Shown: in pieces, positions 5,292 through 34,984 of the stretch
Layout: each line of letters opens with the position of its first letter
Numbering within the stretch: position 1 is the first letter of the stretch
From: a virus
DNA: 38,194 nt
Virus genome (UHGV): UHGV-0004901
Reading direction: 5' to 3' (one strand)
Position numbers and translations under genes: made by a program
The notes under the pieces: generated by a model
What the model was told of the DNA's origin: nothing
The model's input: the letters and a program-made list of their open reading frames with translations, nothing else
Databases searched by the model: none

Positions 5292-5876
5292 TTATTGTTT
5301 GTTTTTTTCGTTCTGGTTGATGACAAATTCAATGTAACTTTCGATCTTTGCTTTCTCGGTTTCGGGTAACAATGCGTAGCGCGAGCGATCATAGTTGATG
5401 GTCGCAGGGTCGTGCGGGTGAATCAGTAATTCATAGCCGTGACGCCCGAATGCGGATGCAACATTCTCCAGGGTGGAAATGGAAACGCTGACCTCATTGT
5501 TTAACAGGCGGCTGATTGTCACCTGGGCGACGCCGGATGCGCGGTGTAGTTTTCCCTGCGTTGAAAGGTCGCGGCTTTCGCTCATCCAGCGTTCCAGGTT
5601 GTGAGCCGCCAGCTGACCTATATCACTCGGGCCGACAGGCTGAAAACCTTCCTGAGAAAGCGAGCGATCGATATCAAGCCAGTTACGGGGTTTATTGGCG
5701 GCAGCTTCAATTTTTCGCGCAACCTGGTCGCCGATAACCTTCTTGCCAAGAGCCCAGCGGTTTACCAGATTTGCCTGAGTTCCAAGTTTTTCTGCCATCC
5801 GCGTCTGAACACCATTGAATTCACGGTCGATCAAGTCGTTGAGATTTTGCCTGCGGACGTCCTGGATACTTTTCAT
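5292..5876 (-). CDS. Immunity repressor (CI-like) with two HTH domains and no S24 peptidase domain
   Basis: 194 aa; two XRE-type HTH-like segments (…TRMAEKLGTQANLVNRWALGKK… and …ASGVAQVTISRLLNNE…); divergent from the Cro-like gene across an operator cluster. Confidence 0.7.
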   Translation of the reverse strand: MKSIQDVRRQNLNDLIDREFNGVQTRMAEKLGTQANLVNRWALGKKVIGDQVARKIEAAANKPRNWLDIDRSLSQEGFQPVGPSDIGQLAAHNLERWMSESRDLSTQGKLHRASGVAQVTISRLLNNEVSVSISTLENVASAFGRHGYELLIHPHDPATINYDRSRYALLPETEKAKIESYIEFVINQNEKNKQ

Positions 5877-14709: not shown

Positions 14710-14786
14710 TGGCGTGGCATGCAGGATTCGAACCTGCGACCAACCGCTTAGAAGGCGGTTGCTCTGTCCAACTGAGCTAATGCCAC
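14710..14786 (-). tRNA. tRNA-Arg, anticodon UCU (decodes AGA), phage-encoded
   Basis: Folded by hand: 7-bp acceptor stem GUGGCAU/AUGCCAC, D-arm GCUC..GAGC, anticodon stem ACCGC/GCGGU with loop CUUCUAA, T-arm GCAGG-UUCGAAU-CCUGC, discriminator G and encoded CCA. Confidence 0.85.
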
Positions 14787-31894: not shown

Positions 31895-31917
31895 CAAAAA
31901 AGCCCTCGCCGCGGGCT
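31895..31917 (-). terminator. Rho-independent terminator after the 31917..32456 gene
   Basis: Minus-strand AGCCC-GCGGCGA-GGGCT hairpin followed by a T6 run. Confidence 0.6.
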
Positions 31918-32456
31918 TACCAAAACTTGTACCACGGGGATTTATCCTTCAATGGACAATCCTTCCATCGTGTGGCTAACCATTCATATTCTTTAAAATA
32001 TGTGTTTATGTTTTCTTTTTCTCTAATAGCTTGTATAAGAGGTAGCGCAATCTGATAGTTATTTACAACGGAGCTGTAAAATACTTCCTTAATCATGGTC
32101 TCATCATAAGTTTTCCGCTTCACGCTCACAGCCATGCGTTCGTAGAAACCTAGACAGTAAATTATTTCTCTCTTCTCTATCTTTTCTTCATCCGTAAGAT
32201 CAGCCTGCCCATTGCTTGGATACATATAAGAGCGGAATGATTTGTTCGACTCGTGAATGCGGCGCATAGTAGATAGGCCTTTCTTATAATCTACATCAAA
32301 CCTGCTTTCACCAAGGAATACTGAAGTGTGTACTTTTCTCGCTGTATTTACATTATAAATAATAGTAGCGATAGCTATGAACAAGCCAAGCGAAACCGCG
32401 ACTGCACTTACGATTTGAGCCACAGCCATGGCAAATTGCATTTCTTCACTTAACAC
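31917..32456 (-). CDS. Membrane-anchored protein of unknown function (single N-terminal TM, about 36% GC); candidate superinfection-exclusion/defence protein
   Basis: GTG start with SD GGAG; TM segment AMAVAQIVSAVAVSLGLFIAIATII; AT-rich; occupies the position held by sieA in P22-type genomes. Confidence 0.55.
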   Translation of the reverse strand: MLSEEMQFAMAVAQIVSAVAVSLGLFIAIATIIYNVNTARKVHTSVFLGESRFDVDYKKGLSTMRRIHESNKSFRSYMYPSNGQADLTDEEKIEKREIIYCLGFYERMAVSVKRKTYDETMIKEVFYSSVVNNYQIALPLIQAIREKENINTYFKEYEWLATRWKDCPLKDKSPWYKFW

Positions 32457-32585: not shown

Positions 32586-32600
32586 TCACCCGTAAGGTAA
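32586..32600. promoter_or_regulatory. Operator-like palindrome TCACCCGTAAGGTAA
   Basis: Direct reading. Confidence 0.45.
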
Positions 32601-32672: not shown

Positions 32673-33383
32673 TCAGAAGAACCCTGCCTTGTCGTTGATG
32701 TATTCCGCGTGCGTCTGGATATCACGCAGGCATTTGCTCACACCGACGATGTAGCAGAACATGGTGGTCAGCTCCGCCGCCGCGCCCGATACGTCGTGCC
32801 CGTCTTCCTGTAACTGGTTCAGCAGATTCATCAGCAGTGAGTTCTCCGTCAGGCCGAGAACACCAGACGGCGAGTGAATCAGGCTGCGGTAGCCGGGCTT
32901 CAGCGGGGCGCTGTAGGTTTTGTTCTCTATCTTCATTGCCTGCATCACTGCTGATGCTGTGGCGTTTGCAACCTGGTCGGCAACCATCTTTATGCGTTCT
33001 TCCTGCGGGAGCGAGTTTTTAATGTAACTTCCGGTGCGGCGGATCTGAGGAAGAACCTCACCTGTAACCCATTTACGAAAGCGGTAGGGGATAGTGCCTG
33101 GTGTCACTGCGTCGCGGCAGCGGAGGATCAGTGTGTAGAGGCCTGACTCGGAGATGATGTTGATCTCTTTTACTCGGCTGTCAAAAATTGCACGATGTTC
33201 ATGCCCTATGTTGAACATAGACCTTTCATCATCATCCAGTTTTTCAAGTGCTTGGGTGACGTTTTGGATACGCAGCGCACTACAAACGTCTTGGGCTACA
33301 AACCATGGTTGGCCATCGATAATGATGGAACGGATAGGGTTAACAGATTCAAATTTGAAGATGGCAGTTTGAGCATTAGCCAT
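32673..33383 (-). CDS. ant: Antirepressor with Bro-N/KilA-N-type N-terminal domain
   Basis: ...FESVNPIRSIIIDGQPWFVAQDVCSALRIQN...GLYTLILRCRDA... matches Bro-N; start at ATG 33383 with SD GGAG. Confidence 0.8.
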   Translation of the reverse strand: MANAQTAIFKFESVNPIRSIIIDGQPWFVAQDVCSALRIQNVTQALEKLDDDERSMFNIGHEHRAIFDSRVKEINIISESGLYTLILRCRDAVTPGTIPYRFRKWVTGEVLPQIRRTGSYIKNSLPQEERIKMVADQVANATASAVMQAMKIENKTYSAPLKPGYRSLIHSPSGVLGLTENSLLMNLLNQLQEDGHDVSGAAAELTTMFCYIVGVSKCLRDIQTHAEYINDKAGFF

Positions 33384-33652
33384 GGTGGTTATCTCCACTT
33401 AGTGATTTTAATCACCACCGCAACGCCAATTACTGGTGGTGAACTGGACAAGGTTGGCGTACCGGCCTAAGTGGTACCGGCGTCCTTTCGGACCCCTGCC
33501 CAGCCCACCATAATTCGGATATAGCTGTGCTTAACGCATAAAAAAACCACGTCTGGCGTGGTATGCGCCACTTAGTAACTCGGGACGCCAATCCCGGCAC
33601 TGGATTTTGCCAGTACCCGATTACTATGGCACAAGAGGAGTGCGATGTAAAT

Positions 33653-33760
33653 TTACCGCAAAGGTAATGATAAACGCGAAGAAATATTAAAATCAACCGT
33701 ATTTGGTTGGTTGCGTTTAACGCTTGATCACCTGAAAGCAAGATATTACCTTTAAGGTAA
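33653..33760. promoter_or_regulatory. Two operator palindromes in the divergent ant / 33781 promoter region: TTACCGCAAAGGTAA (33653..33667) and TTACCTTTAAGGTAA (33746..33760)
   Basis: Direct reading. Confidence 0.55.
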
Positions 33761-33780
33761 TGTTATTGTGAGGAAAAGCA

Positions 33781-34509
33781 ATGGAAGTTTTCTGGATAGT
33801 TGTTGGTGTGGTTGCGGTGATTATTTATGTTATCAACCAGAACAAGACTAAGATCTCTGATCGTACGGTCGTTAATCATAACAAAACGATAAAGACCGAA
33901 GATGGGGAGATAACGATTAATCGTACACAGGTGATAGAACACACCTCTACTCAGTTTCAAAAAACTGGAGGTAATGCGCCTAATATTTCCGCACCTCCTG
34001 CTTATGATAGTGCGGTAATCCAGACATATTATAAACAGCAGGAGTTAGCAAAAGAGAGGCAACTGATTCAGCCAAAGCCGTTTACAGCTGAGCTTCCACC
34101 TGGAGTGTCAACGCGTCCGGCATATCATGGAAGATTCCCTGGTGATGACATATCGTCTCAGTCATCTAAAAAAGCACCTCAGGCAGTATCAGAGCCAGCA
34201 AGAATACCTTCTGTATCGCCGCCAAAAGAAGAATCAGCTAACAGAGTTTCAAGTGGTAGCAAGCAGTGCTTGCGATGCAGAATAAACCTACCATATGAAA
34301 AATTCAGGAAATCGTCAAAAAATCCAGATGGATTGACTAAGTGGTGTGCAAGGTGTCTCGATGGCCCAAAGAATACACGCCATATGAAGTGGTGCCCAAT
34401 TTGTAATGTCCGCAGAAAACGAACCAGCTTTTACCCTAATAATCAAAATGCGGACGGATTAATGGCATGGTGCAAAACGTGCTGGGATGAGCACAAAGCG
34501 AAACGATAG
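33781..34509 (+). CDS. Membrane-anchored protein with two tandem CxxC...DGLxxWCxxC zinc-ribbon-like repeats (unknown function)
   Basis: N-terminal TM MEVFWIVVGVVAVIIYVI; C-terminal repeats CLRCRINLPYEKFRKSSKNPDGLTKWCARC and CPICNVRRKRTSFYPNNQNADGLMAWCKTC. Confidence 0.6.
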   Translation: MEVFWIVVGVVAVIIYVINQNKTKISDRTVVNHNKTIKTEDGEITINRTQVIEHTSTQFQKTGGNAPNISAPPAYDSAVIQTYYKQQELAKERQLIQPKPFTAELPPGVSTRPAYHGRFPGDDISSQSSKKAPQAVSEPARIPSVSPPKEESANRVSSGSKQCLRCRINLPYEKFRKSSKNPDGLTKWCARCLDGPKNTRHMKWCPICNVRRKRTSFYPNNQNADGLMAWCKTCWDEHKAKR

Positions 34510-34533
34510 GCCGCTCTTGCGGCCTTTAAATTT
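34509..34533. terminator. Hairpin/terminator between convergent genes
   Basis: GGCCGC-TCTT-GCGGCC followed by TTTAAATTT. Confidence 0.5.
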
Positions 34534-34789
34534 ACCGGGTTTGTTTTCGTAATTGTTCGGCACAATAGTCGAGATGTGTTTGCAGATCCCGCATAGACAT
34601 CTGTGACCTGGTGACGTAGTTAATCAGTGCAGTCAGTTCGGCAAGTGGGCCATCGACATTAAATCCATCCTTATCGAGATCCCGGAGTAATTTCATCAAG
34701 TGCGATCCCTCCACCAGTGATCTGACGCCTCCCGGCGTGTGAATCCTTTCGGTAAATCCGTCTTCCAGTGGATAGTGATACTGCTGCAT
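34532..34789 (-). CDS. Antirepressor C-terminal-domain paralog (85 aa, stand-alone)
   Basis: ...GGVRSLVEGSHLMKLLRDLDKDGFNVDGPLAELTALINYV...RDLQTH... aligns by eye with the Ant C-terminus ...SGVLGLTENSLLMNLLNQLQEDGHDVSGAAAELTTMFCYI...RDIQTH...; strong SD GGAGAAG before ATG 34789. Confidence 0.5.
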   Translation of the reverse strand: MQQYHYPLEDGFTERIHTPGGVRSLVEGSHLMKLLRDLDKDGFNVDGPLAELTALINYVTRSQMSMRDLQTHLDYCAEQLRKQTR

Positions 34790-34865
34790 CTTATCTTCTC
34801 CATACGATAACTGTATATTTATACAGTAACAAATAATTTGTTTGCTATCCAGCACGTTTTGCAAA

Positions 34866-34880
34866 TCACCTGAAAGGTAA
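34866..34880. promoter_or_regulatory. Operator-like palindrome TCACCTGAAAGGTAA between the Ant-C paralog and the tail fibre gene; followed by CATATGTGGTT-N5-GGTAATA (34910..34932)
   Basis: Direct reading. Confidence 0.5.
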
Positions 34881-34984
34881 TATCTGTTCGTATTTATGGG
34901 TTGTCTATCCATATGTGGTTTTTTAGGTAATAGAATGACCAGATATGCGGCGCAACGGGTGCTGCGACTATCTGGAGATTTAAC

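Follow-up and report, generated by a model that had tools for sequence, protein, structure and literature searches.

The virus genome UHGV-0004901, treated here as one window of 38,194 nucleotides (nt), belongs to a Uetakevirus-like Escherichia coli prophage of the phiV10, epsilon15 and TL-2011b type, and the present report deals with the spacer in front of its antirepressor gene ant and with the small RNAs (sRNAs) encoded there. The regulated gene ant was located on the minus strand (32673..33383; AUG at 33383-33381, stop at 32673), near the tailspike gene as in the immI region of P22. Its product is a 236-amino-acid (aa) antirepressor, which profile searches assigned to Pfam Bro-N (E = 9.6e-20) and to phrog_130, 'anti-repressor Ant' (E = 8e-57). 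Because ant lies on the minus strand, positions 33384-33780 form a 397-bp divergent spacer between this gene and a plus-strand open reading frame (ORF) starting at 33781. An earlier note on this DNA, made from its letters alone, had regarded the region as a non-coding leader of about 380 bp. The spacer of roughly this size does exist, whereas the transcribed ant leader was predicted to be only about 233 nt long (from a start at ~33616 to the AUG at 33383), the remainder being promoter and operator DNA common with the divergent ORF.

The whole window was scanned with Rfam covariance models at their curated cut-offs, which gave three matches, namely one tRNA and two RNAs within the ant leader. 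Both leader matches were full-length and on the minus strand: an isrK-type sRNA at 33616-33540 (RF01394, model positions 1-77), which scored 63.5 bits where 50 are required, and a C4 antisense RNA at 33515-33432 (RF01695, model positions 1-87), which scored 66.0 bits where 45 are required (E = 8e-11). A more permissive scan added a match to c4-a1b1 (RF03163), the model for the a1 and b1 targets of C4, at 33629-33577, which at 43.4 bits (E = 3e-9) fell slightly short of the cut-off of 46.7. Upstream of these RNAs, a sigma-70 promoter was predicted on the minus strand (33623..33651), consisting of a -35 element TTTACA (33651-33646), a 17-nt spacer and a TGn-CATAGT -10 element (33628-33623). It shows 9 of 12 consensus matches, has a TG ahead of the -10 element and is kept in relatives, and the spacing from its -10 element to the predicted start at ~33616 agrees with position 1 of the isrK model. 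The IsrK-type RNA is arranged as hairpin 1, hairpin 2 bearing a box termed a1, then a box termed b1 and finally an intrinsic terminator (33540..33562, minus strand; ACCACG-CCAGA-CGUGGU followed by U7), which also scores as such. The CCACG-TCTGG-CGTGG hairpin listed in the earlier note (33546-33562) was indeed present, and is this terminator.

The mature c4 RNA was predicted to span 33435..33509 of the minus strand (~75 nt), with a 5' flank, CCGAAUUAU|GGUGGG, that is the same as that at the 5' end of P1 c4. Structure prediction, the course recommended by the earlier note, showed that this RNA folds canonically at -43.1 kcal/mol (z = -4.6 versus shuffles), and its minimum-energy fold was the same as the centroid. 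The long basal helix of this fold encloses hairpins 1 and 2; the loop of hairpin 2 contains a box termed b', and the single strand after it a box termed a'. The duplicated GTACCGGC that had been noticed earlier (33459-33466 and 33474-33481) proved to constitute the two arms of the hairpin 2 stem.

As read on the minus strand, the two RNAs and the ant leader share two sets of complementary boxes. The a' box of c4 (ACGCCAA, 33454..33460) is complementary to a1 in the IsrK-type RNA (UUGGCGU, 33585..33591, at nt 26 of the transcript) and perfectly so to a2 in the ant leader (UUGGCGU, 33423..33429). Likewise, the b' box (CCACUUAG, 33467..33474) is complementary to b1 (CUAAGUGG, 33568..33575), which lies directly upstream of the terminator hairpin, and perfectly so to b2 (CUAAGUGG, 33395..33402). 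The last 2 bases of b2 are the first 2 of the ant Shine–Dalgarno (SD) sequence GGAG (33396-33393), which is followed by a 9-nt spacer to the AUG. The b boxes correspond to the three copies of CCACTTAG that had already been recognized, two on the plus strand (33395-33402 and 33568-33575) and one on the minus strand (33467-33474), whereas the a triplet (33423-33429, 33454-33460 and 33585-33591) had been overlooked. CCACTTAG was counted 4 times in the window versus 0.66 expected, with three copies inside 180 bp, and not one of 20,000 shuffles gave a leader and an isrK segment that each matched the 7 nt of a' and the 8 nt of b' by full complementarity. Around a2, a conserved minus-strand hairpin, UCACCACC (33442-33435) paired with GGUGGUGA (33419-33412), holds this box in its loop (33412..33442); three of its 8 pairs show compensatory changes in P1, and it competes with the c4 basal stem because it uses the 3' strand of that stem. 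The earlier note had also described a palindrome overlapping the ribosome-binding region of ant. This element, GUGAU-UAAA-AUCAC (GTGATTTTAATCAC, 33402..33415, minus strand), is not a true palindrome but an inverted repeat whose 5-bp arms are 4 nt apart; it lies between a2 and b2, 6 nt upstream of the SD, and does not overlap it. Being conserved in none of the relatives, it was set aside as a local feature.

To assess conservation, the module was compared with those of phiV10, TL-2011b, ZX5, phiv142-3, two Klebsiella phages, VT2-Sakai, an Stx2c phage, APSE-2 and a Yersinia phage. In all 10 of these fetched relatives isrK was directly followed by C4, both scoring above the cut-offs; Gifsy-1 likewise had the isrK-C4 pair, and P1 gave c4-a1b1 plus C4. 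The block conserved across phages (~33408-33673) coincides exactly with the promoter, isrK and c4, and the flanks diverge. The canonical c4 shape with b' and a' unpaired was found in 12 phages; 8 covarying pairs were identified in the c4 helices (11 phages) and 5 in isrK hairpin 1. For the boxes, complements of the unpaired c4 segments were searched in the extracted modules of 13 phages, including P1 and Gifsy-1. The a1 box was located at nt 26 of the isrK transcript in 12 of 12 phages compared, and in the relatives a2 lay 0-4 nt past the C4 match, with b2 adjoining or over the downstream start region; overlap of b2 with the SD was seen in the window and in most relatives. Seven a variants (including UUGGCGU, UUGGUCU, UUGACCU, UUGGAAC, UUGAGAC and UUGACAG) and about 10 b variants were recognized among the 13 phages. 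Despite these differences between phages, a1/a'/a2 and b1/b'/b2 remain complementary within each of them, the b boxes being Watson–Crick paired in most, whereas a few have one G-U pair or pair over just 6-7 bases. No other evidence for a function of the a and b boxes is as strong as this three-way covariation. The antirepressor-type domains encoded downstream of the module vary (Bro-N, ORF6N, AntA and P1 Ant), and thus the RNA module behaves as a portable cassette. In a cross-specificity matrix with G-U pairs allowed, the own-phage combination was the best or tied best except for a few b-box comparisons; the background of 5-7 contiguous pairs was too noisy to define immunity groups from it. 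The occurrence of c4 and isrK upstream of a Bro-N gene has already been noted in an APSE comparative-genomics preprint (10.1101/2020.03.17.996009).

Two known systems are closely matched by this organization. In the annotated immI region of P1 (NC_005856), Oc4, the operator for C1, sits at the promoter and is followed by a1 (TTGACAG), b1 (GTTAGTGC), a 77-nt c4, a2 (TTGACAG), b2 (GTTAGTGA) and the start of icd. The window thus shares with P1 an operator at the promoter, a 7-nt a1, an 8-nt b1, a c4 with b' in a hairpin loop and a' unpaired, a 7-nt a2 and an 8-nt b2 over an SD, followed by the antirepressor operon, all on one strand. The 15 nt around the c4 5' end (CCGAATTATGGTGGG; flank AAUUAU|GGUGGG) are identical in both, and the spacings are similar (a2 to b2, 20 nt in the window and 22 nt in P1; b2 to AUG, 11 nt and 10 nt). 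On the other hand, the a and b boxes of P1 have other sequences, and a different immunity specificity is therefore predicted. P1 possesses icd, whereas the window lacks it and has b2 on the SD of ant itself; the a1/b1 segment of the window is, unlike that of P1, a separate terminated sRNA scoring as isrK; Ant is a Bro-N protein rather than P1 Ant1/2; and the operator is a TTACC-N5-GGTAA palindrome rather than an asymmetric C1 site.

The closest relative with experimental data is the isrK-orf45-anrP-isrJ locus of Gifsy-1 (RF01394). Two transcripts arise from its isrK promoter, a short IsrK that ends at the terminator and an isrK-orf45-anrP mRNA formed by read-through (Hershko-Shalev et al., 2016, PMC4825925); this long transcript is translationally silent, and a processed RNA of ~80 nt, STnc1160, is also formed (PMC4825925). 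IsrK supplied in trans raised anrP translation ~140-fold and transcription ~8-fold (PMC4825925), and both its binding to Hfq and this in-trans activation of an antirepressor are known only from Gifsy-1 (PMC4825925). The Gifsy-1 'orf45'/STnc1160 segment (34131-34214) scored 69 bits as Rfam C4, and IsrK overlapped a c4-a1b1 match of 48.1 bits. Gifsy-1 and the window have in common the isrK and C4 pair directly upstream of the antirepressor gene, the a box UUGGCGU and the layout of promoter, start and terminator. They differ in that a 45-codon ORF runs across c4 in Gifsy-1 and ends at the anrP AUG, with coupling contributing, whereas the corresponding ORF of the window has 14 codons; in addition, Gifsy-1 has another b box, AnrP with ORF6N in place of Bro-N, and no TTACC-N5-GGTAA site at its isrK promoter, and isrJ is absent after ant in the window. 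The Gifsy-1 authors compare their system with P4 CI and seqA, calling CI a structural analogue (PMC4825925); P1-related terms were not found in a text search of that paper.

The P4 CI RNA (seqA/seqC) is, by its description, also like c4 in being a processed small RNA with target repeats up- and downstream on the same transcript. It differs in bringing about early transcription termination of replication genes and in being itself the immunity factor, without antirepressor control. The immI region of P22 resembles the window in having the antirepressor gene near the tailspike gene and in post-transcriptional RNA control. In P22, the strand opposite to ant gives rise to sar, a cis-antisense RNA that spans the ant start, whereas Arc and Mnt repress as proteins. 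No counterpart of sar, arc or mnt was found here by the promoter scan or among the ORFs of the leader, and the RNAs identified here are on the ant strand, upstream of the gene, and would act via the short a and b boxes. The antisense RNA analogous to P22 envisaged by the earlier note is thus borne out insofar as an antisense-acting RNA appears to target the ribosome-binding region of ant, but this RNA is transcribed from the same strand as ant and is not of the sar kind.

The promoter region was further characterized with respect to its operators. A search for TTACC-N5-GGTAA with at most 1 mismatch revealed 15 sites in the window versus 0.56 expected (136, 5158, 5220, 5932, 5980, 6317, 8287, 8349, 11964, 11982, 15109, 32586, 33653, 33746 and 34866). 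These sites are nearly all intergenic, genome-wide, and resemble the scattered C1 operators of P1. Both operator palindromes reported for the spacer were confirmed as members of this family: TTACCGCAAAGGTAA at 33653..33667, 1 nt upstream of the -35 element of the isrK/c4/ant promoter (centre ~-44), and TTACCTTTAAGGTAA at 33746..33760, in front of the divergent ORF at 33781-34509. The latter is located before the point where the ant transcript is predicted to start and hence outside the ant leader RNA. Two further sites, 5932 and 5980, are situated between a gene for a 194-aa helix-turn-helix (HTH) protein of the HTH_3 family (5295-5876, minus strand) and a cro-like gene, and past the opposite end of this repressor gene come 5158 and 5220. 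The idea of a second operator system was accordingly not upheld, as the two palindromes belong to a 15-site family of which four surround the HTH repressor gene. Of the loci compared, all 6 Uetakevirus-like ones have the palindrome ahead of the isrK promoter, and the other phages lack it there. Since the family sits by the HTH and cro-like genes and precedes isrK in the Uetakevirus-like loci, the site at 33653-33667 is, judging from these sequences, most likely an operator of the prophage HTH repressor, placed like Oc4 of P1.

The RNA family membership, the fold, the box geometry including b2 over the SD, and the three-way covariation are established here, and on this basis we regard it as highly probable that the region is an RNA switch of the P1 immI and Gifsy-1 isrK type controlling the translation of Ant. 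RNase P processing, terminator read-through, the translation block and the decoy role of IsrK are inferred by homology with P1 and Gifsy-1. In the proposed mechanism, transcription of the minus strand would start at ~33616 from the sigma-70 promoter beside the prophage-repressor operator, and many transcripts would probably end at the terminator (33562-33540), leaving a ~77-nt IsrK-type sRNA with a1 and b1. The read-through RNA would carry c4, its 5' end probably being cut by RNase P as in P1. The folded c4 would expose b' (CCACUUAG) in a loop and a' (ACGCCAA) as a single strand and pair with a2 (UUGGCGU) and b2 (CUAAGUGG); because b2 overlaps the SD, ribosome binding at ant would be blocked and Ant kept off. 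The c4 RNA should act in cis as well as in trans, and should therefore also hit a superinfecting phage with the same a and b boxes. The IsrK-type RNA, with identical a1 and b1, would most likely compete as a decoy for c4 (or for the corresponding intramolecular pairing) and turn Ant on, as IsrK does in Gifsy-1. No upstream ORF of the icd or orf45 type was found in the leader, and hence b2 overlaps the SD of ant itself. The ORF starting from the AUG at the 5' side of c4 has 14 codons only and ends at a UAG inside the b' loop, 84 nt ahead of the ant AUG; translational coupling to an upstream ORF is thus precluded, and control must act on the SD of ant. Taken together, the module adds a further member to a phage switch type already known and is not a new mechanism; it is distinguished by its a/b specificity, by having no upstream ORF and by its operator of the Uetakevirus type.

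Several points weigh against this interpretation. Both RNAs are predicted from the sequence, and the promoter matches the consensus at only 9 of 12 positions. A repressor bound at ~-44 would likely repress the promoter and, with less probability, could activate it. RNAcofold gave a free-energy difference (ddG) of 0, that is, no net gain, for c4 with either IsrK or the ant leader; this run was uninformative because loop-loop contacts are outside its model, and the local duplex energies of -11.6 to -16 kcal/mol are indicative only. With the upstream ORF missing, pairing must affect the output of Ant in another way than in P1 and Gifsy-1. Moreover, the Gifsy-1 authors explain the effect of IsrK by alternative mRNA structures and not by titration of a processed c4-like RNA (PMC4825925), and orf45/STnc1160 co-expressed with IsrK made growth arrest more pronounced and gave no relief (PMC4825925).

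Among the alternatives, the one that survives best, albeit as an unlikely replacement, is that c4 acts mainly on transcription in the manner of P4 CI RNA, such that c4 paired with a1/b1 or a2/b2 would make transcription stop early, at the isrK terminator or by Rho in the untranslated leader. In P1, as established for immI and reflected in its annotation, the end effect of c4 on ant is Rho-dependent termination once icd translation is blocked. A CI-like role of STnc1160 at the IsrK terminator is raised by the Gifsy-1 authors (PMC4825925), and b1 here is directly upstream of the terminator hairpin. However, the overlap of b2 with the SD, in the window as in most relatives, favours translational control, as does the 140-fold response of the Gifsy-1 translational fusion versus the 8-fold response of the transcriptional one (PMC4825925). 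The two mechanisms are not mutually exclusive, and P4-like termination may add to translational control.

We consider it very improbable that the prophage is decaying and that its module has become an inactive relic. Such a reading could draw on the fact that the module is known from its sequence and that, compared with phiV10, the foreign ORF at 33781-34509 has been inserted by the promoter. Yet the six a and b boxes are perfectly complementary, and the promoter and terminator are intact, as is the stem of c4. In addition, a 601-bp query (33300-33900) was searched in 5,426 complete E. coli genomes: at least part of it was present in 471, with at least 80% coverage in 95; it was at least 98% identical in dozens of genomes and 100% identical to one sequenced chromosome. 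Phage HEMP4 also has the region at 98-99% identity.

No more credible is the explanation that the leader acts via a small coding ORF (icd-, orf45- or 'ash'-like) coupled to ant, the RNA matches being secondary. The translation of orf45 does contribute in Gifsy-1 (PMC4825925), P1 needs icd according to its annotation, and in ZX5 an ORF of 37 aa lying over c4 is annotated as 'ash family'. Nevertheless, the ORF with the conserved AUG stops in the window after its 14 codons, 84 nt short of the ant AUG; Gifsy-1 orf45 is conserved in nucleotides and not in amino acids (PMC4825925), and it is the base pairs that covary. The leader ORFs of 103 aa (33430-33741) and 34 aa (33467-33571) were rejected as candidates, both overlapping the RNAs, and the orf45 counterpart is cut to 14 codons.

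Finally, P22-style control, by a plus-strand sar-like RNA across the ant start and/or by separate operators of the Mnt/Arc type, could appeal to the tailspike-proximal position of ant and to the palindromic operators, but is the least probable of all and can practically be dismissed, given that the promoter scan showed no plus-strand promoter-like site in 33200-33780, that structure and covariation reside on the minus strand, that the space between promoter and ant is filled by the two RNAs with no arc- or mnt-sized gene, and that the palindromes belong to the site family around the HTH repressor and cro-like genes. The ORFs listed in that space coincide with the two RNAs and are unsupported, no profile search having been run on these small ORFs.

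A second gene may be tied to the switch. In the spacer (TTGTTA-17-TATCGT) of another promoter lies a near-consensus LexA box, TACTGTATAAATATACAGT (34808-34829; CTGT-N8-ACAG at 34811-34826), and this promoter precedes an 85-aa ORF (34532-34789, minus strand) assigned to phrog_450, a family of unknown function. The 85-aa protein shares 43% identity (E = 3e-20) with the 80 C-terminal residues of Ant, and the exact LexA box also occurs in phiv142-3 and ZX5. From its sequence, the ORF looks like an SOS-controlled small antirepressor, with a logic like that of 186 Tum or the LexA-controlled antirepressors of Gifsy. The 194-aa HTH_3 protein gave no Pfam match to peptidase S24 and is therefore probably incapable of self-cleavage. 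For the close relative ZX5, overexpressed Bro-N Ant was reported to favour lysis and the HTH repressor to block it (PMC9782041); sRNAs are unmentioned in that paper (PMC9782041), and no literature search was aimed at c4 or isrK in Uetakevirus-like phages. We tentatively suggest that a minimal module, in which c4 directly blocks the ant SD and IsrK is a dedicated c4 sponge, constitutes a two-stage commitment switch together with the operator and the LexA-box gene. The order of events, put forward with equal reserve, might be that SOS induces the 85-aa antirepressor, the repressor leaves the isrK promoter, and a burst of IsrK titrates c4 so that full-length Ant is made. If the minimal module is true, the P1 c4 and Gifsy-1 IsrK models would unite into one mechanism.

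Regarding the neighbourhood, the divergent ORF (33781-34509, plus strand; phrog_6762), hereafter ORF242, encodes 242 aa with an N-terminal hydrophobic segment and with C-terminal CxxC repeats, which weakly match the zinc ribbons of endonuclease VII and Lar-like type. It was found in TL-2011b and is absent in phiV10, ZX5 and phiv142-3, and has the look of a moron whose insertion separated the small LexA-box gene from the isrK promoter. A 21-nt inverted repeat of 90% identity, AGATATTACCTTTAAGGTAAT at 33741-33761 and ATCACCTGAAAGGTAATATCT at 34865-34885, represents a duplicated -10 plus operator unit flanking ORF242 and the 85-aa gene, and the pair may mark the boundaries of the insertion. A fourth copy of CCACTTAG (34337-34344) is situated inside ORF242, whose mRNA thus holds CUAAGUGG, with no adjoining a box. 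A 26-nt imperfect inverted repeat (73%; 33409-33434 and 33798-33823) makes the 5' coding region of ORF242 resemble the ant leader around a2, and UUGGUGU in ORF242 could pair with a' via one G-U pair. The ORF242 mRNA could thus be a second target of c4, although chance is the more likely explanation. On the 3' side of ant, a DUF4760 gene (31917-32456, minus strand) has an operator-like TCACC-N5-GGTAA site (32586-32600) ~130 nt upstream. The phage also encodes a tRNA-Arg (anticodon TCT; 14710-14786, minus strand), and Gifsy-1 likewise has a tRNA-Arg near the isrK locus; a tRNA-like element in the ant leader was considered and discarded, ARAGORN giving only this tRNA-Arg.

The 'long repeat-rich leader' can thus be read as a compact RNA immunity module, for which exact coordinates of two unannotated sRNAs and six target boxes are now provided; among the 5,426 complete E. 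coli genomes that were searched, several hundred carry this prophage type. Because the Gifsy-1 orf45/STnc1160 segment scores as C4 and IsrK carries a1 and b1, the work on P1 c4 and that on IsrK describe the same cassette; in the literature that could be searched, the two were linked only indirectly, through P4 CI. As a variant without an upstream ORF, the module would offer a clean system in which to test direct SD occlusion by c4 and the decoy role of IsrK. The variable a and b boxes, in turn, predict immunity-specificity groups among the related prophages.

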